A program made the position numbers and the translations under genes. A model generated the notes under the pieces. The model saw only the letters and a program-made list of their open reading frames with translations, made no database searches and was not told the origin of the DNA. Below are positions 1 to 45,464 of a stretch of DNA of 64,000 nt, piece after piece. The number at the start of each line of letters is the position of its first letter. Within the stretch, counting starts at the first letter, position 1. This stretch comes from Patescibacteria group bacterium (lineage in GTDB: Bacteria; Patescibacteriota; Minisyncoccia; Phycocordibacterales; SBAW01): NCBI GenBank assembly GCA_016176685.1, contig JACOWS010000001.1, forward strand, positions 11,577 to 75,576, given 5' to 3'.

Positions 1-272
1 GCTCCCCTACGCGTCATAGCCTTGGTAGGCCGTTACCATACCAACTAGCTGATGCGACACAGGCCGCTCAAAAAGCGCATTGCTGCTTTACTCCCTCGAT
101 TGCTCTCGGGAGACTATCGGAAATTACCCCGTCTTTCGACGAGCTATGCCCGACTTTTCGGTGCGTACCTGCGTGTTACTACCTCGTCTGCCGGTTGTCC
201 CTTACGGGACCCCCTTGACTTGCATGCCTTATCCACGCCGCCAGCGTTCACCCTGAGCTAGGATCAAACTCT
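1..272 (-). rRNA. rrs: 16S rRNA, 5' portion (gene runs off window start)
   Basis: Reverse complement of 241-272 reads AGAGTTTGATCCTAGCTCAGGGTGAACGCTGGCGGCGTGG, the universal 16S 5' end. The rc of ~20-60 contains GCTAGTTGGTATGGTAACGGCCTACCAAGGC (E. coli ~240-270 region). Confidence 0.9.
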
Positions 273-592
273 GATTTAAGAGCGAAGCGATTAAATCATC
301 GCTCCACAATTTAGCTCGATTAGAACGGAACAAGAGAAAAATAACTTCTCTCTTGCTTGCCCTCCATAGCTTTACGCGACGGAGGGTGTGCCTTCCCCCG
401 GAAAAGAGAAAGGACTTCTTTTGCTTGCTTGCCCTCCTGCTTGCGTGTGTATGCAAACAAAAGAGCTGCCCTTCGTCCTTCGTAAAACTCAGGACTTAAG
501 GTCTTCGATGTGATCTGCCTCTCTACCCGCGTATTTTGCGGATAAAGAAGTTTTTATTCGTCCCTACGTCGCTAAAGCTTCGAAGGGCACAG

Positions 593-10308: not shown

Positions 10309-10433
10309 TCTGTTCTGGCGGCTAGCTACTCTCGCCTCCTGTGACAGAGACTACCATCGCCACTAGTGAGCTTAACTTCTGAGTTCGGGAAGAGATCAGG
10401 TGTGACCTCACCGTTGAGCCACCAAAACAGAAT
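10309..10433 (-). rRNA. rrf: 5S rRNA
   Basis: The rc contains CCCGAACTCAGAAGTTAAGC...GAGAGTAG. Terminal helix TTCTGTTTTGGTGGC / GCCGCCAGAACAGA. Confidence 0.85.
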
Positions 10434-10539: not shown

Positions 10540-14175
<3,636 letters not shown>

Positions 14176-18720: not shown

Positions 18721-21700
18721 TTAGAATCCGCTCGAAGGAAGACCCGAGACGTAGTACCCATCGAACCAGTCAAGAGCCTGAATGCCTGGCGTCGTAGACG
18801 CGTTGTCAGACCATACGAAGTTCTTGGTGGTTGAGGTAGCGTACCCGAGGGATGCACTCTGTGTTGCGCCGACAGTCGCAGCTTTGTTGGCGTTTGTCCC
18901 GGCAACCTGGGTTGAGGTTGCGGCATCGCCCATAATCGTTGCGTTGACACTCCAGACAGTTGCCGCAGAAGCCGGCGCCACGTCACCCTCGACCACAAAG
19001 TAGGTCGTACCGGTGAACGAGTAAGGCGTCGTCTGAATGAAGCTTACGGTCGGAGCGGCGATGTCGAGCAAACCGCCTAGCGCTGCGGTACCGCCGAACT
19101 GACCGCCGGTGGTGCCCGAGACGTTTGCCGGGCCAGAACCGTAGTCGCTGGTGTACGCGTAGAGCTTGAGGTTGGTCACGCTTGCAGATGAGGTCGCGAG
19201 CTTAACCGACACTTCGTAGAGACTTATCGGACCAGCACTGTTTGCCGTGACGGTGAATTTCTTCAGCGTCTGGGCAGTGCCGTTACACGACGTGGTGTTG
19301 GTGCATTGGGTTCCAGCGTTGGAGACTACCGGGTAGCTCTTGTACATCTGGATGCCCGCTACGCCCGCCGTCGCGCCCGACTGGATAGTCGTACCCGAAG
19401 ACTGGCCGGTGCCCTCTGCGTTGAGCGGGTCAACCTTGACGACATCGCCCACGCCGCCGTCCTCACTAACGCCAATGTTGGCGAGGTCAGCTTTGACCGT
19501 GAGGAGCTTGTCGGAGTCCTTCGGCAGTGTAATTGAGAGTGCCGAGGAAGTAGCCGATGTGTTGGTACCGGTGAAAGAAACCGTACCCACCAGTGTCGAG
19601 CCGTCGTAGAGGTAGACCTGGGTTAGGTCGGAGACACCGCCGTTAGTAGAGCCTCCACCCGTCAGGGCTTTTGAGAGCGTGTTACCGCTGTTGGTGAGAG
19701 TAAGCCCCAGCTTGGTGAGCGTTATCGGCTCATTGGTAGCGCGGAGCTTTATAACGCCTACCGTAACGCCAGTCGAACCCGCCGTCACCAGTTTGTAGGA
19801 GGGGGACGAAGAGTCAACCGTAACAGTGACAGAACCTGCACCCATAGTCATGGTGCCGCCCGTTGCGTTGCCGAAGGTCTCTGTGATAGAGCCGCCGGAG
19901 GTAACACCGGTTGCCGACCAGTTGGCCGCGCTGGTGCTAATGCTTGCAACAAGCGAGTCTGTAACAGCAGTTACTGCAGATGAGATGTTGCATTTAAGAC
20001 CGAGTGTCTTGATCGTACCCTTCGCTATAGTCATCGAGTTGTCGAAGGTGTAGGTCGTTGCCGAGCCGCTCGCCGCAAGCGTTGATGGCACATTGGAGCC
20101 CGTGTTGAGCGGTGTGGTGCCGTCAAAGACCTGGCACGTGTTGAGCTCGCCGATGACCATCGTGGTCAAGGTAAGGATGATGGGCACCGAAGAGATGCGT
20201 ACATCCTCGCCCGACTGCGAGGCATCAAGCTGGAGGTTTGCCAAGAGGATACCCTGGCCACCTCCCACGACGGTTTGCGAAGATGGAGAGGTCGAGAGCG
20301 AGACAACGAGTGCCGCCGCCTTGATTGTCATCGTGTTCATCGCGAAGACGCCTGTCGAGATGGTGATGGTGTTGCCCGTAACCTGGCCGGTTACGCCACT
20401 CCACGAAGACGGGGTGGTAGAAACAATAACCGTTGAGTTATTGCTTGCGCCGGAAGGAATTTTACCCTTGACGGTGTAGATGTGGCGTCCGGTCGGGAAG
20501 GTAATAGTGTCGGTGAAGGTAACGGTACAGGTGGTGGTGCAGGTTGACGCTTCGTCAACCGGGCCAGCGACTACGACGCCGTTTTCATCAACAATCGAGA
20601 TCGAGGTGAGAACCCCACTCATGTCGGAGGAAGTTGCTATCGTAATCGGAAGGGAAGTGACGGAAACCGCCTCACCCTTGAAGTCCGTTACGAAGCCGCC
20701 CAAGACCTGGTTCGGAACATTCGCCGCAATGTTTTGCGCGGCGACCTCCGTTGCCTTGCCTATGGTCGTTACCGTACCTGCGTTGATGGTTGTTGCATAG
20801 CCGTCAAACCATGGCTGGTAGGTGCCGGAAGGCGCGATACCGTAGCCGTAGGTCTGGCCAACAAAGTAGACGTCTGTCACTTTGTCGATGTCGAAGTCAA
20901 CCGTGCGCGAAGCAGAGTTGCTGCCGACGAGGTCTGCCATGTTGTAGAGGTCAATCGAGTTGCCCTTGGCGATAAAGAGACCGCCTGGGAATACCGTGGT
21001 GTAGTACTTGCCGTCGGAAGAAACGGTCGTCGGATACGACGTGCCGTCTACAACGGAGACTACATTTGCAAGGTCAACCGAGCTTGCGGTGCCCACCTGG
21101 CGCCAGCGAACGCTGTAGAGCCGGAGGTCTTCTGCGGAGCCGGCGGTGAAGCGCAGGCCCGAAACGCGCACGCCTGTGTCGCCAATGTTCTTCGATTGGG
21201 TTGAACCCGGGTCAAAAGAAGACGTGGTGGTCGAGACAGAGCCAAGCGTCAGGGTCGTGTTGATAGTGTGGCTTGCACCAACTATCGGGAGCGAACCTGC
21301 AACCGGCGCGCTGGAGTTTATCGCCACAATCTTGAGCGAAACGACTTGACCGTTGTTGCCTGTTGCGGTCGAAGAGATGTTGCCTGCAACCGTGAGTGAC
21401 TTTGTTTCGCCCGGGTTAAGGGTGAAGCCGTCTAAGCTGGCCTGGTGGTTGCTGTTCAGTGTCTTTGCAGTACCGAGCTGAAGAGCACCGCTGTCAACCA
21501 AGACGACGCCGCTGAAGTTGCTGTCAACGCCGAGCCCTGTGCGCTCGATAGTGACACTGTTGACGGTAACCGCGGCCGCCGTGTTGTTCGTCACCATAAA
21601 GTTGGTGAACGGAAGGCGGTTGGAACCCAAGGGTGCCAGCGCGTTGCTCGGCTGTGCCGTTGCGGAAACCGTAATGCCGGGGCCCGTCGGAGTGACCGGG

Positions 21701-22224
21701 CCGGGGCCTGGGGTAACTACCGTGCCGCACACCGCAGAAATCTGCGCGCGGGTCTTAGAACCAACATAGCCAGCGATAGGCGTAATGTTGTACTTAGTTT
21801 GGAACTTCATGACCGCCGCCTTGGTGGCAGGGCCGAAGAATTGCGTCTCACTGCCGGGAGAGCCTGCGCCGGAGACTGCAACCATGGTGTCAGCGGATCC
21901 GTTAAGGAACTGCTGAAGGGCCAAGACATCAGCGCCAGTCGCGTTCTGCTCTAGGTCGCGAGAAAGCGCGGGGCATGCGCCGCCGGTACCTGTGCCGGTA
22001 CCAGTACCGGAAGTCGGCTGGCCGAGGAGCGATGCTTGCACATTCGCGATAGTGGTTGCATCAGCACCGAAGGACTGAAGCAGAGAAACTATCGAGCTGA
22101 TTTGTGCCGATGTCAGCGCCGCCTGTGCCGGGGCTACTGCAAACGCACCAAAAGCAAGTGCGGCTGCAACAGCAACACCAGCCGCCAGACCGACGATTCG
22201 TGTAGAACTGTGAGTAATAGTCAT
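18721..22224 (-). CDS. Giant secreted/surface protein with peptidoglycan-binding domain (PG_binding_1-like) and Thr/Ser/Gly/Val-rich beta-repeats
   Basis: Start set at MTITHSSTRIVGLAAGVAVAAALAFGAFAVAPAQA (signal peptide). The N-terminal domain LSRDLEQNATGADVLALQQFLN...FFGPATKAAVMKFQTKYNI matches the PG-binding fold. The remaining >1000 aa are nearly devoid of charged residues. Confidence 0.8.
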   Translation of the reverse strand: MTITHSSTRIVGLAAGVAVAAALAFGAFAVAPAQAALTSAQISSIVSLLQSFGADATTIANVQASLLGQPTSGTGTGTGTGGACPALSRDLEQNATGADVLALQQFLNGSADTMVAVSGAGSPGSETQFFGPATKAAVMKFQTKYNITPIAGYVGSKTRAQISAVCGTVVTPGPGPVTPTGPGITVSATAQPSNALAPLGSNRLPFTNFMVTNNTAAAVTVNSVTIERTGLGVDSNFSGVVLVDSGALQLGTAKTLNSNHQASLDGFTLNPGETKSLTVAGNISSTATGNNGQVVSLKIVAINSSAPVAGSLPIVGASHTINTTLTLGSVSTTTSSFDPGSTQSKNIGDTGVRVSGLRFTAGSAEDLRLYSVRWRQVGTASSVDLANVVSVVDGTSYPTTVSSDGKYYTTVFPGGLFIAKGNSIDLYNMADLVGSNSASRTVDFDIDKVTDVYFVGQTYGYGIAPSGTYQPWFDGYATTINAGTVTTIGKATEVAAQNIAANVPNQVLGGFVTDFKGEAVSVTSLPITIATSSDMSGVLTSISIVDENGVVVAGPVDEASTCTTTCTVTFTDTITFPTGRHIYTVKGKIPSGASNNSTVIVSTTPSSWSGVTGQVTGNTITISTGVFAMNTMTIKAAALVVSLSTSPSSQTVVGGGQGILLANLQLDASQSGEDVRISSVPIILTLTTMVIGELNTCQVFDGTTPLNTGSNVPSTLAASGSATTYTFDNSMTIAKGTIKTLGLKCNISSAVTAVTDSLVASISTSAANWSATGVTSGGSITETFGNATGGTMTMGAGSVTVTVDSSSPSYKLVTAGSTGVTVGVIKLRATNEPITLTKLGLTLTNSGNTLSKALTGGGSTNGGVSDLTQVYLYDGSTLVGTVSFTGTNTSATSSALSITLPKDSDKLLTVKADLANIGVSEDGGVGDVVKVDPLNAEGTGQSSGTTIQSGATAGVAGIQMYKSYPVVSNAGTQCTNTTSCNGTAQTLKKFTVTANSAGPISLYEVSVKLATSSASVTNLKLYAYTSDYGSGPANVSGTTGGQFGGTAALGGLLDIAAPTVSFIQTTPYSFTGTTYFVVEGDVAPASAATVWSVNATIMGDAATSTQVAGTNANKAATVGATQSASLGYATSTTKNFVWSDNASTTPGIQALDWFDGYYVSGLPSSGF

Positions 22225-22753
22225 AACCTTGATAATTGTCGAACGAATAAATTTACTAATAACGAATTGATAATCGAACCTATCTACCTGCCCTGCTCTC
22301 CGTTGCACGGCCCTATCAAAGGGCTGGCAAAGTAGATTCGGAGCGTTGGTAGCAAAAGAGGGATGGGGGAAGTCAGCCGTGCGCAACCGTAGAGGGACAA
22401 GGAATTTCTGTAAGTAACGTATCTACTACTGTAGACGTTCTAAGCAATGCCTGCTTACAGCGCCTTCAATAGTTTTTGCTTATTAAATTGTCAACGAACC
22501 ACGAGCTACATGGGCTACCAGAAATTGCCCCGCGGTCTTGTGCAGCCGCTAGCAACAATTATATGGTACATACCGATAACGCGGTAAAAACGCCTGTGGA
22601 TAAGCGGGAAAGCCAAAAAAGGAAATAAACCCTATTTGGGGCCTTTATCCTGCCTGTTCACAGCAGGGTCAAGGTATACCATATTAGACGTGGAGTCAAC
22701 GTATATAGTAAGGTACCTGAAATAGTAAAAAACACATAAAAACAGCTTGTCAA

Positions 22754-33874: not shown

Positions 33875-35311
33875 TTATTCTTTGCGTGGGAAGAGGGTTG
33901 TGGGTTTTTTGTCAGTGATGACAGCTTCTTTTATTTTTTTGCTTGTTTCCGGCATAAATGGCTCGAGCATTTGGCCAATGCCTAACAACTCTCGGGTAAG
34001 GTCAAAAATAAGTTTTTTGCCCGCCTCGGGGTCGGATTTTACCAGTTTAAATGGCTCGGTGGCGGTTATTTTTTGGTCAAGCAATTGCACATGGCGAAAC
34101 GCTTCGTCGATGGCATGGTTTATTTCAAAGCGTTCAAACGCGTCTGTATAGTTTTTAGAGAAGTCGGCTGACTCGGGTTTGGTGCCACCTTCTAAATGGT
34201 CTTCAGCGAGCTTCATAATGCGGGCAACCAAGTTGCCCAACCCGTTGGCCAGGTTGGCATTGTATATTTCCTTAAAATGCTCGCGTGTTATATCTCCATC
34301 TTCAAACGGATTAATGTGACGAGTGAGATAATAACGCAGCGCATCAACGCCATATTCTGCAAGCAGTTCTTCCGGGTCTATAACATTGCCTAGTGTCTTA
34401 GACATTTTTTTACCGCCGGATGTTACAAAGCCGTGTACCAGCAGCATTGCGGGGAGCGGAAGTTTCGCCGAGAGAAGCATCGCCGGCCAAATGGCGGCAT
34501 GGAAGCGCAAAATATCTTTACCAAGCACATGTATGCCTGGCCAGAACTTCTGGTACAGCGCGTCGTCGCGCCCATAACCCAGGGCGGTAACGTAGTTTGA
34601 AAGTGCGTCGCACCACACATACATAACTTGTGAGTCGTCCCCGGGTACTGGGATGCCCAAACCAGGCGGCCAGTCGGTCTTGCGTGGCCTGGAGAAGCTC
34701 ACATCTTCAAGCCCGGAAGAAATGAAGGAGAGTATTTCATTACGACGTGTCTCCGGGATTATCTTGAGTGCGCCCGATGCTATTTTTTCTTTTAGAGTAT
34801 CTGCATACCTTGAAAGTTTAAAAAAATAATTTTCTTCTTTTATCTTTTCAGGCGCTGTGGCATGGTCGGGGCATTTACCATCTACCAAGTCTTTTTCGGT
34901 TACAAAGGCCTCATGTCCAACACAATAGAGCCCTTCATATTCTTTTTTATATATATCTCCAGCATCTACCAGCTTTTTCCACAGTAACTGAGCCCCGGGC
35001 CAGTGTGCCTGCTGGTCGGTTGTGCGAATAAACTGGTCGTAGGAAATACCGAGTTCTGCATAAAGACCCTTAAAAGTTGAGACAATATCATCAAGAAATG
35101 CAATCGGGTCTTCACCGACCTTGCGCGCGGCATCTACCATTTTCTGCGTATTCTCGTCAGACCCAGTGAGAAAATATGTCTCCTGCCCCATTAACCGTCT
35201 GTAGCGGACCAGAGTGTCGCTTATGGTAGTGGTATATGCATGACCAAGATGCAGCTTGGCATTGGGGTAGAAGATCGGGGTCGTGAGGTAAAACGGTTTT
35301 TTTTCCGACAT
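33875..35311 (-). CDS. metG: Methionyl-tRNA synthetase (short form, no C-terminal tRNA-binding domain)
   Basis: PIFYPNAKLHLGHAYTT (HIGH-type) and KMSKTLGNVIDP (KMSKS). Confidence 0.95.
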   Translation of the reverse strand: MSEKKPFYLTTPIFYPNAKLHLGHAYTTTISDTLVRYRRLMGQETYFLTGSDENTQKMVDAARKVGEDPIAFLDDIVSTFKGLYAELGISYDQFIRTTDQQAHWPGAQLLWKKLVDAGDIYKKEYEGLYCVGHEAFVTEKDLVDGKCPDHATAPEKIKEENYFFKLSRYADTLKEKIASGALKIIPETRRNEILSFISSGLEDVSFSRPRKTDWPPGLGIPVPGDDSQVMYVWCDALSNYVTALGYGRDDALYQKFWPGIHVLGKDILRFHAAIWPAMLLSAKLPLPAMLLVHGFVTSGGKKMSKTLGNVIDPEELLAEYGVDALRYYLTRHINPFEDGDITREHFKEIYNANLANGLGNLVARIMKLAEDHLEGGTKPESADFSKNYTDAFERFEINHAIDEAFRHVQLLDQKITATEPFKLVKSDPEAGKKLIFDLTRELLGIGQMLEPFMPETSKKIKEAVITDKKPTTLFPRKE

Positions 35312-35319
35312 GGTAGACC

Positions 35320-36432
35320 TTATGCTTCCTCTTTTTCTTGTGCAAGCCCACCGGCATGGCGGGCGAGCTGTTGGGCCAGAGCCCGCGACTTTTTCTTGTC
35401 AATATCATTTACAAACTCTTGTATGGCGCCGGCAATGGGCACCGAGAGAAGGACGCCCAGAAAGCCGACGAGTTTAAATCCAACCAAAAGCGCCAATATA
35501 ACTAACAGGGGCGGCACGCCAACCACCTTTTTTACCACCACGGGGTAAATGAGGTGCGCCTCGAACTGCTGTACCACAACATAAAGCCCGGCGACCAACA
35601 GCGCCATGGTGGGCCCGCCGGCCGCGAACCCAAGCGCCACCGCAGGTATTGCGGCAAGTATCTGCCCAAACACCGGGATAAGCTCAAACAGGGCCGCCAA
35701 CACCGCAAGCAACAGCGCGTGCGGCACATCCAGTATAGTAAGCCCCAGGTATAGCAACACCCCCACTATAGCCGCAAGGATTATCTGCCCCTGCATCCAC
35801 TTGCCTATTTTTTGTTGCGAACGCTTCCATAGCTCCAATACATACGCCTGCTCTTTTACCGGCGTTACCACGCGCAGAAAGTCATCAACTCCTGTTTCTT
35901 GCACGGAAAAGTAGAAAGAAAAAACGACCACCAGTACGAACGAAGTTACCCCGCCAAAGAACGCGGATAGGGTGGTAAAAACACCGCCGGTCGTGTCGGC
36001 CAGCGTTTTGGAAACGCTGCGCAAAAGTTCCGCCGAGGAAAGAGTGTCCCCCGCATTACTCCACGGCAAGAGTCCGTGTGTTGCGTCGGAAATGGAAATA
36101 TTTAGCGCGGCGACGGTGTTTGGCAGGCTGGCAAGGAAGGTGGCGGCGTCTTCCAGAATAGGCGGGATGAAGAAAAACAGTACGCCAAAAAATATACCGG
36201 CAACCAGGGCGTACATAAAAACCACCGACAACAGTCGTGCAAAACCGTGACGAGTGAAAAAAAGGATTGCTGGCTCCATTGCCGAGGCAATGACCACCGC
36301 CGCAAGCACCACCAAGACCAGGTCCCGCAGGTAAAAGAGGAGTCCCAACAGGAGCACGAGAAGTATGGCTGCAATAATGCTCCCCGGCGATATGGAGATA
36401 TTAAAATGCCGGTCGTTCATACGGCCTATCAT
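35320..36432 (-). CDS. AI-2E family transporter (UPF0118/PerM-like)
   Basis: 8-TM protein with the characteristic YVVVQQFEAHLIYPVVVKKVVGVPPLLVILALL C-terminal region. Confidence 0.8.
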   Translation of the reverse strand: MIGRMNDRHFNISISPGSIIAAILLVLLLGLLFYLRDLVLVVLAAVVIASAMEPAILFFTRHGFARLLSVVFMYALVAGIFFGVLFFFIPPILEDAATFLASLPNTVAALNISISDATHGLLPWSNAGDTLSSAELLRSVSKTLADTTGGVFTTLSAFFGGVTSFVLVVVFSFYFSVQETGVDDFLRVVTPVKEQAYVLELWKRSQQKIGKWMQGQIILAAIVGVLLYLGLTILDVPHALLLAVLAALFELIPVFGQILAAIPAVALGFAAGGPTMALLVAGLYVVVQQFEAHLIYPVVVKKVVGVPPLLVILALLVGFKLVGFLGVLLSVPIAGAIQEFVNDIDKKKSRALAQQLARHAGGLAQEKEEA

Positions 36433-36452
36433 AGCATACGGGGTGGCGCCTC

Positions 36453-37757
36453 TTACGCGGCGAGCAGGGCGGAGAGTTTTGCGCCAAGCTCAATGCCTGG
36501 CACGCGCTCCTGCTCTCCGGTATCGCGGTCGCGCACAGTGACCGTGTCATCTTCAAGCGTTTCAAAGTCTACCGTGATGCACCACGGCGTGCCTATCTCG
36601 TCTTGCCGGCGATAGCGCTTACCGATATTGCCGTTGTCGTCCCACATCACCTGCGGTATTTCTTTTTTGAGCGCCTGATAGACTTCGCGTGCTTTTGCCA
36701 CAAGCTCCGGCTTGTTTTTGAGGAGAGGAAACACGGCGGCTTTAACGGGAGCTATGGCAGATTTCAACTTAAGGTACGTACGCTTTTCTCCCCCAAGCTC
36801 GTCTTCCGTATACGCGCTTGCGAGCACTGCAAGCACCGTGCGGCCAAGACCGAAAGTGGGCTCAATAACATGCGGAACAAATTTAGACCCGTCTTCTTCT
36901 GCATATTGCATATCTACTCCTGATTTTTCCATATGTTTAGAAAGGTCGTAGTTGGTGCGGTAGGCCAACCCATAGAGCTCTTTGCGACCGAATGGAAAAT
37001 CAAATTCGAAATCGATGGTGCGCTTGGAGTAGTGTGCGCGCTCATCCTCTGGAACATTTAGCTCATGCACCGAGTCTTTTTTGATGCCTACAGATTCTAT
37101 CCACCCCCACATTTCATTACGCCAATACTCAAACCATTTCTCCCACTCTGCCTCATTCACAAAATATTCAAACTCCATAAGGTCAAACTCTCGTACGCGG
37201 AAAAGGAAATCTCGCGGAGCGATTTCGTTTCGAAATGCCTTGCCACTTTGCGCGATGCCAAATGGTAGTTTGGGGTGAAAAGAGTCGATAATATTTTTAA
37301 AATTGACGAACATCCCTTGCGCTATTTCTCCACGAAGGTATCCACGCGAGGCACCGACGGTGCTCCCCAAGTCAACAGGAAAAAGCAGGTTAAACATTTT
37401 TGGCTTGCCAAGTTTGCCTTTGCACTCTGGGCAGTGCTCGCCTTCTACCTGGTCGGAGCGAAAGCGGTGTTTACACTTTGCACACTCAACCATCGGGTCG
37501 GTAAACCCCTCAAGATGCCCGCTTGCCGCCCATACCACCTCTGGCATAACAATACTGGAGTCGAGCCCATACATGTCATCACGAGAGCTGACAAATTGCC
37601 GCCACCACAGGTTTTCAATATTTTTTTTAAGCGCAACGCCAAGCGGTCCGTAGTCCCACGTGCCGGCAAGCCCGCCGTAAATTTCCGAACCCTGGTATAC
37701 AAACCCCCTGCGCTTGCACAGCGAAACAATTTTTTCCATTAAGTCAGTTTCTGTCAT
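36453..37757 (-). CDS. glyS: Glycyl-tRNA synthetase, dimeric eukaryote/archaeal type
   Basis: GFVYQGSEIYGGLAGTWDYGPLG N-terminus and class II motifs. Single-chain ~430-aa form rather than glyQ/glyS. Confidence 0.9.
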   Translation of the reverse strand: MTETDLMEKIVSLCKRRGFVYQGSEIYGGLAGTWDYGPLGVALKKNIENLWWRQFVSSRDDMYGLDSSIVMPEVVWAASGHLEGFTDPMVECAKCKHRFRSDQVEGEHCPECKGKLGKPKMFNLLFPVDLGSTVGASRGYLRGEIAQGMFVNFKNIIDSFHPKLPFGIAQSGKAFRNEIAPRDFLFRVREFDLMEFEYFVNEAEWEKWFEYWRNEMWGWIESVGIKKDSVHELNVPEDERAHYSKRTIDFEFDFPFGRKELYGLAYRTNYDLSKHMEKSGVDMQYAEEDGSKFVPHVIEPTFGLGRTVLAVLASAYTEDELGGEKRTYLKLKSAIAPVKAAVFPLLKNKPELVAKAREVYQALKKEIPQVMWDDNGNIGKRYRRQDEIGTPWCITVDFETLEDDTVTVRDRDTGEQERVPGIELGAKLSALLAA

Positions 37758-37771
37758 AAAGTCCTGTTTTA

Positions 37772-39715
37772 CTATTTCGGGGCGACGATGTCCATGCCGC
37801 TAACAAAACCACTCTCCCCCGCTACGCTGGTGGTGGGGGCTGGGGCGCTCGCCTGCACAGCCACCTGGGCAAACCGGTCTTGGCCAGAAAGGAGTGTACC
37901 TCCGGTGAGCAAAGGTGCGGTACCTACCTGGCTGGTGCTGGGTGTAAATCGTACTTGGAAGGCCGCCTGGTTTTGCGCGAGCGTGTACCCAGTCCCCGCC
38001 TTTATATCGCCAATAGTCCAGCGCACGGTGCGGCTAGCACTGTCGTAGGTAAGGTTGTTGCCCGGCTGTGCCGCCACAAACTCAATGTACGGCGGCAGTA
38101 CGGTTGAAACGCTCGCATTGGCAACGGTGTTGGTTGGGTTTTTAACCGTCCACATAATAGTGTAAGTGGTTGGCGACTCCGCGCGCGGCGGCATAGGGCC
38201 GCTGTTTACAAACGGACCGGTAAAATGCCGCGCCTCTGCCAAAAGCGATAAGACCGAGGCCAGCCGTACCTCGGCCGACGCAACAGAGGACACTGTCTCC
38301 GACGCTCCACCATCCCCTACCCTGGTGCCCTTCACGGTTAAATTAAGCTCGATGGTCGGGTTAGTTATCAGCACATTATTTGCACCAGGAAGGAGCGAGC
38401 TGAAGGAAAATTGCAGCGCTCCGCCCCCACCAGGCGGCACTTGCGCCAACGTCGGCTCCTGGTCCTTTGTCCAAATGATAGAAGAGTTTGCCGACTGGTA
38501 AAATCCGTTTACCGCACTTATAGAATTTCCGTCGAGCGCCGGCCCAGCAAACGACAATGCTAGTTCTAGGTTGGCGACCGAGTCAGGTAGATTATTTTTC
38601 CAGGTCACCACTCCTTTGATCCCCGCACCCGGCACAACCGCGATTGCCTTGCCACTCTGTCCGGCAACTGAAATGGTGCCGGAAATGAATGGTAGACGCA
38701 CGGTGAGTGTCTGCGGCACCTCAAGAAATGGCACCGTAACGTGCGGGTCGGTGGCATCGGTATTGGACCCGACCAGAAAGCGAAATATGCGCTCGTCGCC
38801 GTCTTGCCCGTCTATCGTTCCCACAATATGGATAGTTTTTGTGGAGCCGGGAGCCATGGTGCCAAGCATCCACAAGGTGCTGCCGCCAGCCGCCGCTTTC
38901 GGACTCGTACTTACTGGAGAAAAACCAAACGGGTACCGTGCCTCAACCGCAACCGTTGCAATGGAGGTAGGTGCATTTGCGCGCACCTCGATGTCGATAG
39001 GAAATTGTTCGCCTGCGACTGCCTCCGCTGGGACACGTACTGTGAGAGACACCGGGGAGGAACCTATAACAAAACTCTGCTCAATCTTTTTTTGGAACAC
39101 CGCATTTGACCCGGCAACGCTGTACTCAAGGGTTACTAGCACTTTTTCTTGGGCACCTTCATTGCCATAGAAGAGCCCGGAGACAGTGCGTTTTATCTGC
39201 TCTCCGGACGCAATGGTGCCAATGGAGATTCTCTCGTGCGCTAAGGGCTCCGTAGGGTCGACGGGACTGCGCGTATCTCCAGGATAGTCGACAACCAGAT
39301 CCACCAACTGGAGAGCTGTCTGGTTTCGGTTTTGCACCAGTATCTGGAATGACGCTTCTTTTCCGCCGTCTACAAGAGACGGCGCGACAATTTCTATGTC
39401 GATATTTTGAGGGGAGATCAGATTTCCTCCGCCAAAAAACATAAAAGCCGCCACGGCGCTTGCCCCAACAAAAAAGAGCATGGAGGATATAAGAAATGTT
39501 CGCGCTACCGATCGTGTTTTTTTTGCCATAGGTATAGGTGTTTCAATAGAGATATCTTCTGACTCGCCCCTGGCGTGGACGTCGCTCCAGGCGGTCGGGA
39601 CTGACGACTCTTTTTTGGAAAGCGCGGTTCTCTCCTCCCCAACGTCTGTCTTTGCCGTGCGGTCATAGAGGCGCCCTTTGAGCCGCTCTACGGCATCTTT
39701 TTCGTCCCTTTCCAT
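37772..39715 (-). CDS. Hypothetical large membrane-anchored extracytoplasmic protein
   Basis: Charged N-terminal cytoplasmic ~70 aa, one TM (FLISSMLFFVGASAVAAFMFF), then ~560 aa of beta-rich Thr/Ser/Gly/Val sequence. Confidence 0.6.
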   Translation of the reverse strand: MERDEKDAVERLKGRLYDRTAKTDVGEERTALSKKESSVPTAWSDVHARGESEDISIETPIPMAKKTRSVARTFLISSMLFFVGASAVAAFMFFGGGNLISPQNIDIEIVAPSLVDGGKEASFQILVQNRNQTALQLVDLVVDYPGDTRSPVDPTEPLAHERISIGTIASGEQIKRTVSGLFYGNEGAQEKVLVTLEYSVAGSNAVFQKKIEQSFVIGSSPVSLTVRVPAEAVAGEQFPIDIEVRANAPTSIATVAVEARYPFGFSPVSTSPKAAAGGSTLWMLGTMAPGSTKTIHIVGTIDGQDGDERIFRFLVGSNTDATDPHVTVPFLEVPQTLTVRLPFISGTISVAGQSGKAIAVVPGAGIKGVVTWKNNLPDSVANLELALSFAGPALDGNSISAVNGFYQSANSSIIWTKDQEPTLAQVPPGGGGALQFSFSSLLPGANNVLITNPTIELNLTVKGTRVGDGGASETVSSVASAEVRLASVLSLLAEARHFTGPFVNSGPMPPRAESPTTYTIMWTVKNPTNTVANASVSTVLPPYIEFVAAQPGNNLTYDSASRTVRWTIGDIKAGTGYTLAQNQAAFQVRFTPSTSQVGTAPLLTGGTLLSGQDRFAQVAVQASAPAPTTSVAGESGFVSGMDIVAPK

Positions 39716-39738
39716 TGTGCTCTAGTATAGCAGACGGC

Positions 39739-40320
39739 CTAGAGCCCTGTGGCGCCGAGCGACTCGTTTATGCTGCGCACCAAGGTGGCACGGGCTTTGA
39801 GCGCGCGCGCGGCAAGTTCCCTGCCAAACTCGTCGCTTACCACAAACGGAGACAGTTCCGGAGTATTCGGCAAGTATCCCAAATGCGACAGTATCCTTAA
39901 CACCAGCACGCACTCAAGCGCGTCTTCTTGCGATTGCGTTTGTGCTTGTACCAGCGCGGCAAGTCCGCGGAGCACGGTTTGGTAGAGCGCGGGCATGGGT
40001 TCTTCTCCGTTTATGAGCCGTAGCAAAAGTCGTGTTGCTCGCGCGGCGATGTGGCGGCGGGCGACGACCGGCGCAAGGTACGCACTGGACATCTGCTCCG
40101 CCCCCACCAGTTTCCACTCGTATTTGCCGCGTATGAGCGAAAATGTTCCACGAGATAGCGGCTCGAGCCCGTAGCGCAACTTCGACTTTTCGGCGCGCGC
40201 ACTGCGCGCAAGCGCACGCACTAATCCAAGCTCCTCTGTTAGGATAACCGCCAGCACGTTGGCCTCGCCCACCCCGCGTTTTTGTAGCACTATTCCGTCA
40301 GTGACAAAAAGAGTGTGCAT
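39739..40320 (-). CDS. recO: DNA repair protein RecO (compact form)
   Basis: N-terminal OB fold TDGIVLQKRGVGEANVLAVILTEELGLVRALARSA, then a helical domain. Confidence 0.7.
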   Translation of the reverse strand: MHTLFVTDGIVLQKRGVGEANVLAVILTEELGLVRALARSARAEKSKLRYGLEPLSRGTFSLIRGKYEWKLVGAEQMSSAYLAPVVARRHIAARATRLLLRLINGEEPMPALYQTVLRGLAALVQAQTQSQEDALECVLVLRILSHLGYLPNTPELSPFVVSDEFGRELAARALKARATLVRSINESLGATGL

Positions 40321-40326
40321 ACAAAA

Positions 40327-43300
40327 CTATGCGCTTTCACGCACGACAATAGTAAGCTCTGCAAGACCCGTCTCGTTCATGAGTGTCGCCTTGTGTACTT
40401 GGGCTACCGACTCTTCCTCAGTACTTACCATCAGCGTGTAAGCAGGCCGGTCGCCGATAGAAAGCTTTTTCTCTTTGCGCCATGATTGGATGCGCCGCGC
40501 CAGGTCGCGGAGCATTCCCTCTTCCTTAAGCGCCTGGCTAATGTTTGTGTCGAGGATAAACGAAGTTTCGCTAGGGCCTTTTCTCTGCTCGAACACTATT
40601 TCTTTCACATTGATTTCGTCGGCAAGAATATCCAAAAACTCTTGAGGGAGGGGCGGGCCATCATGCATAATGGAAAGTTTCGCGAGCGGTTGCCGTATTT
40701 TTATACCCGCATCTTCTCGCTGTTTAAGAGCAACCGTTGAAAAGCTGCGTATCAACGACATATCGGCTAGCACTTCCTGGTCGATAGGGAGCGCTTCCGG
40801 CCAGTTTGCAAGATGCACGCTTTCGCACTCGCCATCGACTCCGCGATATATACTTTCCGCAATAAATGGCATGAGGGGTGCCGTAAGTCGCGCAAAGGTG
40901 TCGAGAACCTCTTTTTGCACCGCGAGCGTGTACTGCGCATCTCTGTCATCTGGTGCCTGCCTTGCGCGCTCGCGCGAGCGTCGTACATACCACGTGGAGT
41001 AGTCGTCTATGCAAGCGCGCAGAGCGCGGCAGGCGTCCGGCATATTATACGCATCAAACGCGGCAGTAACTCTTTGCACCGTCTCTCCCACACGGGAACG
41101 TATCCAGCGGTCAAGTACGTGCACACTCTCCCCCGCCCTTGCGGTGCCGTCGTACTGCTCTTTATACAATTCAAAAAACTGGTACGAATTCCACAGCATG
41201 CCGACCACGCGATTGTGTACCTCGCGCACATCTTCGTCGCGGAACTGCAGGTCTTCCGAGCGCATAACCACGCTTCCCATAAGATAAAACCTATAGGCAT
41301 CGGCGCCAAACTGCCCCAGTAGCACGAGCGGGTCTGTGTAATTTCCCTTCGACTTAGAAAGTTTGGCCCCGTCTGCGGCTAACAGGTTGCCGGTTGAGAC
41401 AACCGCGTTAAATGACCGCTTGCCAAACAGCGCGACACTTGCCGCCAGCATGTAGTAAAACCAGGTGCGCGTTTGGCCGATGTACTCGGCTATAAAGTCC
41501 GCCGGGTATCCTTTGGGGAAAAGTCCAAACCAGCGCTCCGGGTCTACGGTTGAACGGTCTCTTGGGTATCCAACCGAAGAGGTGGGCATGGTCCCCGACT
41601 CTACCCAGCAGTCCACCACCTCTGGAATGCGTTCATACTGCCGCCCATTCCTATCCTCCAGCACCATCTCGTCTAGGTAGGGACGGTGCAGGTCAACTTC
41701 AAAGTCTTTGTCGTGCGGATACGGTATAAAAGAAAATGGATGCCACTGCCCAACCCGAAGCGGCGTGTCGTGGGTACGCTGTGTTACTTCTACAAGAGGA
41801 GTATGGGCGGCCATCTCGATCATCAGCCAGGCAGGGGTGCCATGCGTCACTATAAGTATGCGCTTGTTAGTGTAGCGGCGCTCTATTTCAAAAAGAAATT
41901 CTCCAACACGACGGCGCACGTGCAGATAATTTTCTCCATGCAACACCGTAGTGTTAAATTTGTCGGAAAGCGTGGCAAACAGCGCCTCCCACTCGGGTAT
42001 CGCCGCTCCGTCTTTTTCTCCAAACTGCACTTCGGTCAAACGCTCGTCTGTCATAACAGCCGACTCTGGCAATCCCAACTCCTTTCGCACTATATGCGCG
42101 GTTTCTTGCGCACGTGTCAGCGGGGAGGCAACTATCAGGTCGATTTTCTCTCGCAAAAGTGCGCGTGCCGCAGAGTGGACTCCCGCTCTGCCTTCCGCCG
42201 TTAGATGATTTTCTACGTCGTTGGAAGAGTTTACAAAGCCATCCGCATTGCTACGCGCCCCACCATGGCGCATAACAACATAGTGATTACCGGACTTCTT
42301 TGCTTTTGAGAGCAGTTCTTCAACCGAGCCTATGACCATCAGTTTGCTGCCCCCCCTCTCCTTCCAAATAGGCAAAGGTGAGGCCCAAAAACGGTTACGG
42401 GATATGGTCCAGTCAGGCGCTCCTTCAATAATATTTTTAAAACGCCCGTGTTTGAGATGCTCGGGCACCCAGTTGATTTTTTTGTTTTCCCTGAGCATCC
42501 GCCTCTTTATCTTTTGTATGTTGATAAACCACGAGGCGACCGCGTTGTAGATGAGCGCCGTCCCGCAACGCCAGCAGTGCGGGTAAGAGTGGGTGTGATG
42601 CTCTCTTTTAAACAGGAGGAGGCGGCGTTCTAAATCTTCTTTAATTGCCTTTTCCGATTTCTTTATATACTCGCCGCGCACCAATGCCGGTGCCGTGTCG
42701 TTGTAGGTGCCGTTCGGGTTGAGCAACTGCACCATGGGGAGCCCCTCCTTCTGCCCAAGAGCATAGTCGTCTTCGCCGTACATCACTGCGGTGTGCACAA
42801 TGCCGGTGCCCTCCTCGGTGTTTACAAAATCCGCCGCATACACTTTATATGACTTGTTTGAGTGTAGCGCCGGCACGTCAAACAGCGGCTCATACTCTGC
42901 CCCTACAAGTTGGCGACCAAGAAGCGAAGTTGCAGCTTCTTGAGCAAAAGTCTGGGGGCTACCCGAGGACTTTTGTGAGAGAAGCTGCAGTGTAGCGGCT
43001 CTATCTTTTGCCACCACTAAATACTCACCGTTTTGCTCGACGAGCACGTAGGGGATATCGGCACCCACCGCGAGCGCCACGTTGCCGGGCAGGGTCCACG
43101 GGGTGGTGGTCCAAGCAAGTAGATAGGTATGGTCGGGGAGATTATATTTTTTTGGATTCTTTACCTTTAGCTTTACCGTTACCGCCTCTTCGGTAACATC
43201 TTTGTAGGTATTGTCTGCGGCAATCTCGGCCTTGGCGAGCGGCGTTTCGCAATGCGGACAGTATAGTAATACCTTTCGTCCTTCATACAGAAGTTTTTTG

Positions 43301-43797
43301 TGGTGTAGTCTTTGCAGAGCCCACCAAACACTCTCGACGTAGGAGTTGTCCATTGTCTTGTAGGAGTTTTTGAAGTCAACCCAGCGGCCAACGCGGTCGA
43401 CATACTTTTCCCACTCGCGTTCGAACTCAAAGACAGAGTCGCGCGCCGCATCGTTAAAAGTGTCGACGCCTATTGCAAGAATATCTTTTTTGTTCTTGAG
43501 GCCGAGCTTTTTCTCGACCAAGTTTTCTATCGGCAGGCCATGGCAGTCCCATCCCCATCGCCGCGGCACGCGCCAACCGCGCATGGTTTTGTAACGCGGA
43601 ACAACATCTTTGATGATGGAGGAAAGCAGCGAGCCGTGGTGCGGGAGCCCCGTGGCAAACGGCGGCCCGTCGTAAAAGATAAAATCGCCTTTGGGCGCGG
43701 GCTTTTCAAGCGACTTTTCAAAAATCCGACTCTTTTGCCAGAAGGCCAAAACCTCCTCCTCGCGCTTGGCTGTTTCGCTTTTTTCTGTTTCGGACAT
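40327..43797 (-). CDS. ileS: Isoleucyl-tRNA synthetase (type-2-like) carrying an inserted histidine-phosphatase (PGAM-like) domain
   Basis: DGPPFATGLPHHGS (HIGH region), TTPWTLPGN editing-domain signature, NRFWASPLPIW, DLHRPYLDE, CWVESGTMP and KLSKSKGNYTDP (KMSKS) are all present. Residues ~503-690 (nt ~41728-42291) form an inserted RHG...SPLTRAQETA...DERLTEVQFGE...THG domain. Confidence 0.9.
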   Translation of the reverse strand: MSETEKSETAKREEEVLAFWQKSRIFEKSLEKPAPKGDFIFYDGPPFATGLPHHGSLLSSIIKDVVPRYKTMRGWRVPRRWGWDCHGLPIENLVEKKLGLKNKKDILAIGVDTFNDAARDSVFEFEREWEKYVDRVGRWVDFKNSYKTMDNSYVESVWWALQRLHHKKLLYEGRKVLLYCPHCETPLAKAEIAADNTYKDVTEEAVTVKLKVKNPKKYNLPDHTYLLAWTTTPWTLPGNVALAVGADIPYVLVEQNGEYLVVAKDRAATLQLLSQKSSGSPQTFAQEAATSLLGRQLVGAEYEPLFDVPALHSNKSYKVYAADFVNTEEGTGIVHTAVMYGEDDYALGQKEGLPMVQLLNPNGTYNDTAPALVRGEYIKKSEKAIKEDLERRLLLFKREHHTHSYPHCWRCGTALIYNAVASWFINIQKIKRRMLRENKKINWVPEHLKHGRFKNIIEGAPDWTISRNRFWASPLPIWKERGGSKLMVIGSVEELLSKAKKSGNHYVVMRHGGARSNADGFVNSSNDVENHLTAEGRAGVHSAARALLREKIDLIVASPLTRAQETAHIVRKELGLPESAVMTDERLTEVQFGEKDGAAIPEWEALFATLSDKFNTTVLHGENYLHVRRRVGEFLFEIERRYTNKRILIVTHGTPAWLMIEMAAHTPLVEVTQRTHDTPLRVGQWHPFSFIPYPHDKDFEVDLHRPYLDEMVLEDRNGRQYERIPEVVDCWVESGTMPTSSVGYPRDRSTVDPERWFGLFPKGYPADFIAEYIGQTRTWFYYMLAASVALFGKRSFNAVVSTGNLLAADGAKLSKSKGNYTDPLVLLGQFGADAYRFYLMGSVVMRSEDLQFRDEDVREVHNRVVGMLWNSYQFFELYKEQYDGTARAGESVHVLDRWIRSRVGETVQRVTAAFDAYNMPDACRALRACIDDYSTWYVRRSRERARQAPDDRDAQYTLAVQKEVLDTFARLTAPLMPFIAESIYRGVDGECESVHLANWPEALPIDQEVLADMSLIRSFSTVALKQREDAGIKIRQPLAKLSIMHDGPPLPQEFLDILADEINVKEIVFEQRKGPSETSFILDTNISQALKEEGMLRDLARRIQSWRKEKKLSIGDRPAYTLMVSTEEESVAQVHKATLMNETGLAELTIVVRESA

Positions 43798-43835
43798 ATT
43801 GAAAAACTATAACATCAGTAGTGTTTTTCCGCTCC

Positions 43836-45464
43836 TTACATTTCCTCGGGTGCCGGGATGCCGAGCACCCAAAGGCCCTTAGTGAGTGTTTGCTCCACCG
43901 CTCTAACCAAGTCAAGCGCGTGGTCGGCGACGGTACCATCCACAATAACGCGCTCGGCGGCGTACCAACTGTTAAACAAAGAGGCCAGCTCGGTAAGGTA
44001 GGTAACGACATAGTGCGGCTCCATCTCTTGCGCCGCGCGCGCCACTGCGGCGGGGAAATGTATTAGCAGACGCTCGAGTACATTCCGCTCTTGGAGCGGT
44101 AGAAGTCGGCGCTCCGGGCCGCTAGGCCAAGTCTTACCGACTTCTACCGCTCCAAGAGCTTCACTAGCACCAAGATTCTTTGCTTTGCGCAGGAGTGCGC
44201 GCGCCCGCACCAGCGCATACTGCACATACGGCCCCGAGTCGCCCGCAAGCGAAAGTGATCTTACCGGGTCAAAGATTATATCTTTACCGCTACTCGATTT
44301 AAGCACCGTGTACTTTATCGCTCCAACGGCGACGTCCTCACGCCCGCGCGCCGCTTTGGTCAAATCCTTAAGCAGAGACTCTCCCGTTATGACATTGCCC
44401 TTGCGAGAAGACATTTTTGAATCAGCAAATCGCATCATGCCGTGCGATATGTGCATAGTTTTAGCGGCGATACGTTTGAGCTCTGTAATATGCGCCGCGG
44501 CTGCAAGCACTACTTTAAAATACTCGCTTTGCTCGTTTGCCGTTATGCTTATGGAGGTATCAAGGTCAATGGCACTTTTGAGCTTCAATAACCCGAGCTC
44601 CTTGGCCTCGTATGTCGGCAATCCTTGTGAGGTCAAGAATACTCTGGTGTGCAATCCTTCTTCTTCTCCACGGAATACGCGCGCGCCATCGCTCTCCACA
44701 AACAGCTCTGGATTATCTGTAACAATCGCCGTACCGAGCGGTGTCGCCTCGCTTTCAAAAAAGTATGTATCAAACTTCGTACCAAGCATTTTGTACAGTG
44801 CTTCAAAATGCTCCAGTGAGGTTGTTCTGCCCTCGTCGTACAGCTTATTTATTTCTTCGTCGCTCTTTTCGTACACTTTTTTGTTTATCTCATCTATATC
44901 CTGTTTGTGCGTATCATACTGTTCGCTTCCGTACACATATGCCTCGCCCCAGTGGGCACTCGGTTTTTGCATCTTGCCCCACATTGCCTTCGCCACATGG
45001 AGCCCCACGTCGCCTTGGTAGTTGGCGCGCACCATTGCGGCGCCGGAGTACTCAAGCAACCGCGCAATGCTCTCGCCTATAGCATTGCTCATTAAGTGCC
45101 CTATGTGGAACTCTTTAAACGGATTGGGGTCGGTGTACTCGACCATTACTGTCTTACTTCCATATAGGGAAGTGCGTCCCCACAGAGGATCTGACGCGGC
45201 GCTTTTTACCTCCTTCTGTATTGCTTCGCGCGAGAGAAAGAAGTTTATAAACTTCCCCACCACCTCCACTTTTTCAACGCCATCTATGTTGAGCTTTGCC
45301 GCAAGATCATTCGCGTCCACCTTGGCCATGAGTGCGGCGTTGGTAGCGTAGTCGCCATGTCGCATGTCGCGCGGCCGCTCAACCACAAAAAATACATCCT
45401 CCGCCCCCAGTGTGGCCAGGGCCTCTCGCACCGCCTCCTCAATCTTCTCGCATACCATACGCAT
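43836..45464 (-). CDS. argS: Arginyl-tRNA synthetase
   Basis: N-terminal RPRDMRHGDYATNAALMAK, HIGH-like FHIGHLMSNAIG, and the DALR anticodon-binding domain at the C-terminus. Confidence 0.95.
   Translation of the reverse strand: MRMVCEKIEEAVREALATLGAEDVFFVVERPRDMRHGDYATNAALMAKVDANDLAAKLNIDGVEKVEVVGKFINFFLSREAIQKEVKSAASDPLWGRTSLYGSKTVMVEYTDPNPFKEFHIGHLMSNAIGESIARLLEYSGAAMVRANYQGDVGLHVAKAMWGKMQKPSAHWGEAYVYGSEQYDTHKQDIDEINKKVYEKSDEEINKLYDEGRTTSLEHFEALYKMLGTKFDTYFFESEATPLGTAIVTDNPELFVESDGARVFRGEEEGLHTRVFLTSQGLPTYEAKELGLLKLKSAIDLDTSISITANEQSEYFKVVLAAAAHITELKRIAAKTMHISHGMMRFADSKMSSRKGNVITGESLLKDLTKAARGREDVAVGAIKYTVLKSSSGKDIIFDPVRSLSLAGDSGPYVQYALVRARALLRKAKNLGASEALGAVEVGKTWPSGPERRLLPLQERNVLERLLIHFPAAVARAAQEMEPHYVVTYLTELASLFNSWYAAERVIVDGTVADHALDLVRAVEQTLTKGLWVLGIPAPEEM

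Follow-up and report, generated by a model that had tools for sequence, protein, structure and literature searches.

Aminoacyl-tRNA synthetases are among the best-studied enzymes, and it is already known in kind that they acquire extra domains, as it is that histidine phosphatases occur in multidomain enzymes. A conceptual parallel within the class Ia synthetases is the editing domain of connective polypeptide 1 (CP1), which places a second, hydrolytic domain between the Rossmann-fold halves, and a curated precedent for an isoleucyl-tRNA synthetase (IleRS) with an additional enzyme domain is ileS_w_GNAT (NF040702), in which that domain is an N-acetyltransferase. Among the phosphatases, PspA (4ij5), glucosyl-3-phosphoglycerate phosphatase (6s2q), HFP (9mmh), PhoE (1h2e) and CobC (6e4b) are free-standing enzymes with defined metabolic substrates, and the bifunctional RNase H/acid phosphatase (NF005567; Rv2228c/SCO2299 type) has a CobC-like phosphatase joined to a nucleic-acid enzyme. 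The histidine phosphatase domains of TFIIIC tau55 (Tfc7), of the Nudix fusion MutT1 and of PFK-2/FBPase-2 have other partners and lineages, and these fusions are terminal, not nested. Editing domains aside, we know of no conserved extra catalytic domain inside the catalytic body of a synthetase. Here we describe a 64,000-nucleotide stretch (the window) of contig JACOWS010000001.1 from a Patescibacteria group bacterium (GCA_016176685.1), whose ileS gene encodes a type-2 IleRS (IleRS2) with a complete histidine phosphatase (His_Phos) domain nested in connective polypeptide 3 (CP3).

The ileS product scored 793.4 bits against the NCBIfam ileS equivalog TIGR00392 (cutoff 621.4), and Pfam assigned to it tRNA-synt_1 (1.3e-112), Anticodon_1 and DUF5915, with His_Phos_1 between two stretches of the core. 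The type-2 organisation of its C-terminus is indicated by the DUF5915 match and by the top PDB matches, which are IleRS2 and eukaryotic IleRS, IleRS1 structures reaching less than half their score. Homology to P. megaterium IleRS2 (PDB 8c8v) and T. thermophilus IleRS (1ile) extends over the full length (642 and 630 bits, respectively), and the three enzymes share the catalytic core and the CP1 editing, anticodon-binding and type-2 C-terminal (DUF5915) domains; unlike the other two, the window IleRS carries 188 more residues in CP3, reads HHGS at the HIGH signature and lacks the CP3 zinc-knuckle cysteines. Its CP1 motif WTTTPWTLPGN is invariant among homologues, and the editing-domain structures 1wk8/1wny are matched as well. 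The flanking motifs HHGS, TTPWTLPGN and KLSKS were all found where an earlier note on this DNA, made from the letters alone, had placed them. In HHGS the first His and the Gly are retained and Ser occupies the fourth position; across the window IleRS and its 120 best homologues, the 121-sequence alignment used throughout, HxGS occurs in 105, HxGN in 9 and the canonical HxGH in 6 only, and other Patescibacteria IleRS2 mostly have HYGH. Replacement of the fourth His is unusual for IleRS and reminiscent of the altered-motif IleRS2 in PMC10485003. The mupirocin-resistant IleRS models MupA and MupB (NF000257/NF000258) gave 620 and 639 bits, below the cutoff of 1900, and ileS_w_GNAT gave 298 bits against 1999 with no GNAT match, so that the window enzyme, with its different added domain, is not a member.

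The alignment to 8c8v breaks at query residue 506 (chain residue 481) and resumes at query residue 695 (chain residue 480), which shows that about 188 residues have been inserted and nothing removed. Insert-less relatives have only 6-12 residues at this site, in agreement with the insert of about 190 residues that had been reported at 41700-42300 (aa 500-700). The insert is the equivalent of a complete stand-alone phosphatase of about 190 aa, and free homologues align with it end to end. It had been placed between the Rossmann-fold halves, which is right, and the position can be narrowed further. The catalytic core of PmIleRS2 comprises residues 40-168 and 513-632 (PMC10485003), and in the yeast enzyme (ScIleRS) CP2 spans 420-458 and CP3 459-526, with the second Rossmann half starting at 527 (PMC7955072). 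Since query residue 495 aligns to yeast residue 488, these borders put the insert inside CP3. Around it, D702-L-H-R-P-Y707 in the C-terminal half of CP3 is near-invariant in the alignment. The full-length AlphaFold (AF2) model has a predicted local distance difference test score (pLDDT) of 88.2 and a predicted template modelling score of 0.79, and block pLDDT is at least 86 throughout residues 471-730, both junctions included.

An assembly chimera or frame error joining two genes, the artefact that a check of reads and frame was to exclude, is vanishingly improbable. The predicted single ORF proved to be continuous, with neither stop codon nor frameshift, and its composition is even (GC content 0.52-0.55 in the insert vs 0.48-0.57 in the flanks, with no break). 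PF00300 is present in 120 of the 120 best homologues (55-90% identity, 1007-1205 aa), which come from NCBI, JGI, ENA and Logan assemblies named Adlerbacteria, Kaiserbacteria, Paceibacterota and Minisyncoccia, the nearest being Candidatus Adlerbacteria (Parcubacteria group, 90% identity). The same architecture recurs in at least 120 clusters and 39 GTDB species representatives, and these independent assemblies rule the artefact out.

The proposed domain identity was borne out by the Pfam hidden Markov model His_Phos_1 (PF00300; E=5e-30, 105 bits vs a gathering threshold of 21.7), which aligns over profile positions 2-171 of 194, and every quoted hallmark motif lies in its place. No other His_Phos copy occurs within the window. 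Arg510, His511, Arg562, Glu589 and His652 are each conserved in at least 120 of the 121 aligned sequences, and the positions around them vary freely; judged from this pattern, the catalytic residues are intact, as had been claimed, and under purifying selection. By the chemistry that we take to hold across the family, His511 would attack the phosphomonoester to form a phospho-histidine intermediate. Arg510, Arg562 and His652 presumably hold the phosphate, and Glu589 presumably protonates the leaving group before water releases inorganic phosphate. That the insert is instead a non-catalytic structural or ligand-sensing module replacing the CP3 zinc knuckle is very improbable. The window clade has indeed lost the CxxC...CxxC cysteines, which insert-less relatives keep, and some copies in valyl-tRNA synthetase (ValRS) have a degenerate RHG; however, the IleRS copies have essentially invariant catalytic residues despite overall identities of 55-90%, several other insert-bearing IleRS retain the knuckle, and a stand-alone form exists.

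Modelled alone, the insert reached a pLDDT of 95.3 and has the alpha/beta fold of the His_Phos family. Its nearest fold neighbours are capped small-molecule and nucleotide-like phosphatases, PspA, PhoE and CobC among them; the five free-standing enzymes named above share only 22-24% identity with it, and, in contrast to them, the window domain is nested. The cap, a stretch of about 30 aa, is deleted in 20 of the 121 close homologues (P0015, P0027, P0034, P0037 and others), which keep the catalytic residues and have a SixA-like open site. These cap-less variants would suit a protein phosphatase that dephosphorylates the synthetase or a partner (phosphoserine, -threonine, -tyrosine, -histidine or -arginine) and so reverses inhibition by a kinase or kinase toxin, and a dedicated partner enzyme would explain both the fusion and the specificity for IleRS and ValRS. 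We nevertheless regard this as distinctly improbable: in the fold comparison protein phosphatases scored lower (SixA 15.8, PGAM5 14.5, Sts-2 14.0), about 7 Z units below the best, capped matches, no kinase was seen in the conserved neighbourhood, and multiple copies in one synthetase would be hard to explain.

The insert scored below every curated NCBIfam His_Phos equivalog cutoff. The candidates rejected in this way are CobC (TIGR03162; 66.8 bits vs 162.9), PspA (NF045917), GpmB, dPGM (NF038349 and the bacterial dPGM models; 69 bits vs 225, other models at most 26 bits) and SixA (TIGR00249; 35.2 bits vs 74.5), SixA being a cap-less minimal fold whereas the window domain has a cap. The top-scoring named model was the bifunctional RNase H/acid phosphatase (79 bits vs 326), matched in its phosphatase half only; like the window protein it couples a CobC-like phosphatase to a nucleic-acid enzyme, but the fusion is end-to-end instead of nested and the partner is RNase H. 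The CP1 editing domain differs from the insert in its unrelated fold, in hydrolysing the ester of mischarged tRNA and in being universal where the insert is lineage-specific. Taken together, profile, alignment and model identify the insert as a genuine, ancient and by its residues catalytically intact histidine phosphatase of the small PspA/PhoE/CobC-like kind, nested in CP3.

The insert is widespread in Paceibacteria and Peribacteria and not unique to the window genome. A profile-free exhaustive search with the insert alone returned 6289 representatives at E<=1e-3 and 454 at E<=1e-10; among the best 150 matches, class Ia synthetase flanks are present in 104, and 31 appear to be free proteins of about 190 aa. 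The survey of candidate phyla radiation (CPR) IleRS that the earlier note had proposed found the insertion in 39 of 80 IleRS2 loci from GTDB species representatives. A single copy is present in 33 (Nomura-, Taylor- and Wolfebacteria, Minisyncoccia, Paceibacterota), two copies are present in 6 (Peribacteria, Peregrinibacteria), and the other 41 have none (Magasanik-, Doudna-, Gottesman-, Uhr- and Falkowbacteria, Saccharimonadales, DPANN archaea and others). In CP3, the position of the first copy is always the same; the second Peribacteria copy follows about 15 aa downstream, where the zinc-knuckle hairpin of other IleRS has its tip, and both copies keep their catalytic residues. Two IleRS combine the CP3 His_Phos with further inserts. 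In P0175 (1066 aa, JGI contig), the editing domain contains an in-frame tyrosine transposase domain (RAYT/IS200-like) and the loop that follows the second Rossmann motif a GNAT domain, and P0212 (1395 aa) has a P-loop kinase-like insert at aa 747-863 (AAA_18/AAA_33, weak E-values), a pairing of kinase and His_Phos reminiscent of PFK-2/FBPase-2 or end-healing enzymes.

Two representatives from the set of insert homologues are ValRS, and among the 120 closest relatives of one of them 32 carry a His_Phos domain. The carriers are Magasanikbacteria-like lineages, and the domain occupies two sites, the CP3-equivalent after PVWY and the loop after DTWFSSGLWTFSTLGWP. In a ValRS fragment of 1161 aa (P0159), the CP3-equivalent site holds three His_Phos domains in tandem and a fourth follows the editing domain; all four are intact and keep the catalytic residues. 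Related phosphatase copies have thus been inserted repeatedly into IleRS and ValRS.

The same phosphatase occurs as a separate gene beside ileS. In P0204 (189 aa) it lies between argS and an insert-less type-2 ileS, with 1 nt from its stop codon to the ileS start, in the order IF3-L35-L20-ArgRS-HisP-IleRS-x-RecO-DUF11-class II synthetase; the window has this gene order with the phosphatase inside ileS instead. Eight free homologues were examined: five adjoin ileS, one lies on a contig that is too short, and two are elsewhere, with sugar-metabolism or other surroundings. Another free homologue (P0244), the ninth, comes after argS where the contig ends, and in two Staskawiczbacteria species representatives the free gene overlaps the start of an insert-less ileS. 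We also scanned metagenomes with the pattern [NKG]-N-x-[YF]-[YF]-[LIA]-[LM]-RHG, seeded with free proteins, which returned 80 loci; the seeds included ileS-adjacent examples, so that the proportions are upper estimates. The phosphatase gene is directly upstream of ileS on the same strand in 54 and separated from it by one gene in 3, is fused inside ileS in 9, and follows argS at a contig end in 4; 5 more follow argS with no ileS in the sequence at hand, and 5 are uninformative. Fusion, or ileS within about 1.4 kb downstream, thus applies to 66 of the 80.

Fused copies have the consensus GNxYFVMRHG and stand-alone copies NxYYxLRHG. Since the fused junction GN-x-YF-VM-RHG is the scan pattern of the free genes, the two forms make up one subfamily, whose signature is N-x-[YF]-[YF]-x-[LM]-R-H-G at strand 1 together with a location in ileS CP3 or directly upstream of ileS. 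The window copy reads GNHYVVMRHG, with V at the second [YF] position, and is counted as a member. By signature and gene order, this is a dedicated IleRS-associated His_Phos subfamily, either fused in ileS or encoded separately in an argS-hisP-ileS translation operon. Neighbour-joining trees suggest that the Paceibacteria inserts group with the ileS-adjacent stand-alone genes, a grouping to be read as a lead only given how rough the trees are; they likewise suggest that both Peribacteria copies and the ValRS copies are separate, and are too rough to tell a single origin of the inserts from several. Coordinates of the window features are collected in Table 1.

Table 1. Features of the window IleRS, its phosphatase insert and the adjoining genes (positions are those of the window).
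Feature	Position	Strand	Basis or remark
ileS, type-2 isoleucyl-tRNA synthetase	40327..43797 (end includes stop codon)	-	single ORF, 1156 aa
Non-canonical HIGH signature HHGS, aa 53-56	43630..43641	-	sequence check
CP1 editing-domain motif TTPWTLPGN	43081..43107	-	sequence check
CP3 N-terminal half (PIWKERGGSKLMVIGSVEELLSKAKKSGN), ends in subfamily signature GN-x-Y	42286..42372	-	relatives' alignment, sequence check
Whole insertion relative to insert-less IleRS2, aa 503-697	41707..42291	-	8c8v alignment break, insert-less relatives, stand-alone homologues
His_Phos_1 (PF00300) match, aa 507-676	41770..42279	-	Pfam
RHGGARSN: Arg510, nucleophile His511, Asn517	42247..42270	-	R510 120/121, H511 121/121, N517 116/121
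SPLTRAQETA: phosphate-binding Arg562	42097..42126	-	S558 and R562 in 121/121
DERLTE: general acid Glu589	42031..42048	-	E589 121/121, D584 118, R586 119
Phosphatase helical cap subdomain, aa 590-625, variable	41923..42030	-	secondary structure of AlphaFold models
VTHG: second catalytic His652	41839..41850	-	H652 in 120/121
CP3 C-terminal half (DFEVDLHRPYLDEMVLEDRNGRQYERIPEV), leads into second Rossmann half (CWVESG)	41617..41706	-	relatives' alignment, sequence check
KMSKS signature KLSKS, aa 812-816	41350..41364	-	sequence check
argS	43836..45464	-	Pfam; directly upstream of ileS; in relatives phosphatase gene between argS and ileS
recO	39739..40320	-	directly downstream of ileS; conserved synteny partner

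The phosphatase is genetically tied to IleRS, and elsewhere to ValRS, in three formats: fusion, double fusion and adjacent gene. We lean, tentatively, towards an accessory activity of the synthetase, as opposed to an unrelated passenger, with a substrate that may be a small nucleotide-type phosphomonoester tied to the aminoacylation and editing cycle. A nucleotide-type phosphate is the leading guess because the substrates of the nearest characterised relatives (CobC, HFP, PhoE, PspA and the RNase H/acid phosphatase domain) are small, several of them being base-ribose- or ribitol-5'-phosphate-like. Candidates, which we name with low confidence, would be an AMP-like 5'-phosphate or a phosphate on a terminal adenosine. 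The yeast CP2-3 linker ARDWNVSRNRYWG lines the pocket that receives the tRNA 3' end (A76) and reveromycin (PMC7955072); CP3, by the borders from the same source, follows this linker, which counts in favour of an accessory role. Precise geometry is seemingly not required, given that the phosphatase can be encoded separately, sit in different loops or be present in up to four copies. These same features speak against a rigid channel, and the phosphatase would probably act near the enzyme on a substrate that diffuses or is presented by a flexible end.

Several observations weigh against this accessory role. The cap is dispensable in 20 of the 121 homologues, and the metagenomic proportions are inflated by their seeding. 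Insert-bearing ValRS are interleaved with insert-less ValRS of high identity, so that presence is patchy, and a few ValRS copies have a degenerate RHG (VHS, AHG). AMP and pyrophosphate are products of all synthetases, and a by-product role therefore leaves the restriction to IleRS and ValRS unexplained. A role as substitute pyrophosphatase is weakened in addition, as the two-copy Peribacteria already encode an inorganic pyrophosphatase (PMC4736985). Patescibacteria also fuse housekeeping genes promiscuously: their TsaC, the threonylcarbamoyl-AMP synthase of t6A formation (homologues P0391-P0507 of P0261), has many fusion partners, the Ogt methyltransferase domain PF01035 being commonest; TruB, 2H/CPDase domains, NUDIX, GNAT and a DNA glycosylase occur as well, and His_Phos in 4 clusters only. 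Given these numerous unrelated partners, the TsaC-His_Phos fusion (P0261) is weakened as a link to adenylate-forming enzymes. As IleRS itself hosts RAYT transposase, GNAT and P-loop kinase-like inserts too, fusion alone is weak evidence for a shared pathway.

Some of these observations favour a passenger enzyme, an ordinary broad-specificity or metabolic phosphatase of the PhoE/PspA/CobC-like kind with no mechanistic link to aminoacylation, which genome streamlining would have fused or co-transcribed with an essential, highly expressed gene, and which would be tolerated because CP3 is a permissive surface loop. Besides the promiscuous fusions and the unrelated in-frame inserts of CPR IleRS, the use of several insertion loops, the multiple and divergent copies, the fold closest to metabolite phosphatases and the 2 of 8 examined stand-alone relatives in sugar-metabolism or other contexts fit this explanation. 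We consider it unlikely, though with appreciable weight, as a dedicated signature is common to the fused and ileS-adjacent forms, and the association recurs in three formats and two paralogous synthetases, and not with other neighbouring genes. In addition, all 120 closest homologues have the insert with invariant catalytic residues and conserved junctions, and internal insertion is much rarer than end-to-end fusion and yet has been repeated.

Proximity to the A76 pocket bears also on tRNA 3'-end healing, in which the phosphatase would strip a 2'/3'-phosphate or pyrophosphate, left by a nuclease or installed by a toxin, from the terminal adenosine and so restore a chargeable CCA end. The insert lies in CP3, adjoining the CP2-3 linker, and the insertion sites of IleRS and ValRS are all in the catalytic body, the anticodon-binding and C-terminal domains being free of them. 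The operon consists of translation genes only (IF3, L35, L20, ArgRS, IleRS), the patchy ValRS distribution is accessory-like, TsaC of the same phylum is fused alternatively to 2H/CPDase domains or His_Phos, and cap loss in 20 of the 121 homologues opens the active site. We still judge healing to be rather unlikely. No branch-1 histidine phosphatase is, to our knowledge, active on RNA ends; the fold neighbours are capped small-molecule enzymes, and specificity for IleRS and ValRS would be unexpected in general tRNA-end repair. The fused domains are slightly acidic on average (net charge -2.6), which leaves RNA binding by bulk charge without support. PADLOC gave no meaningful defence match, and PHROGs matched only an unannotated His_Phos-like family. 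In its specific form, the nested or operon-encoded phosphatase would strip from A76 a 2'/3'-phosphate or pyrophosphate that ribotoxins leave or pyrophosphokinase toxins add, and let the synthetase recharge damaged tRNA, which is quite unlikely. If true, a class I aminoacyl-tRNA synthetase would have an activity of its own for tRNA repair or immunity, and the branch-1 histidine phosphatase fold the first RNA-end substrate that we know of. The targets on which the earlier note had speculated, an antibiotic-like inhibitor and tRNA-linked or nucleotide phosphates, stay speculative, and an antibiotic target is without support.

That note knew of no such domain in any aminoacyl-tRNA synthetase and asked whether the insert might be a described variant of the IleRS connective polypeptides. 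No description of the pairing of His_Phos with IleRS, as a variant or by function, was found in the full-text literature, a search that left most subscription journals outside so that an earlier description is possible; a 2026 survey of the domain architectures of 96,219 IleRS contains the word 'phosphatase' zero times. In this the search agrees with the note; the domain itself turned out to be widespread in IleRS, and to occur in ValRS and as a separate gene too. The sequences themselves are in public databases, with Pfam or PhoE labels assigned automatically, and what is new is the recognition of the family, its split and fused forms and their recurrence. In annotation pipelines many of these proteins go under 'class I tRNA ligase family protein' or 'hypothetical protein', for which a defined bifunctional family name is now possible. 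The coupling across a large part of Patescibacteria implies an unrecognised step that some organisms need beside Ile and Val charging, which could be nucleotide housekeeping, tRNA-end repair or regulation, and the split and fused forms are a ready experimental system. Should the phosphatase affect charging or fidelity, it would be a new accessory activity for class I synthetases and would offer a functional way into the physiology of ultra-small symbiotic bacteria, which is poorly understood.

Two split-form loci have peculiarities of their own. In one (L087:2682-5609, minus strand), the ileS adjoining the stand-alone phosphatase gene, and oriented tail to tail with it, consists of two ORFs (412+ aa and 554 aa) and may be a split gene or a frameshift. 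In the other (L083:3915-4361), argS and the phosphatase gene are separated by a gene for a NUDIX hydrolase; mycobacterial MutT1 combines the same two domains, NUDIX and His_Phos. In the window, four synthetase genes (ArgRS, IleRS, a class II enzyme with an HGTP anticodon domain, and MetRS) lie on one strand within 12 kb (33875-45464), and genes for RecO, a DUF11 surface protein and an AI-2E transporter are interspersed among them. A 1221-aa ORF at 18721-22386 (minus strand) has a peptidoglycan-binding domain as its only Pfam match, the remainder being unannotated. The rRNA genes of the window (1-279, 10313-10426 and 11356-14171, all on the minus strand) are unlinked and in an odd order: 23S comes first, then 5S, and beyond about 10 kb of protein genes the window edge holds the 5' end of 16S.

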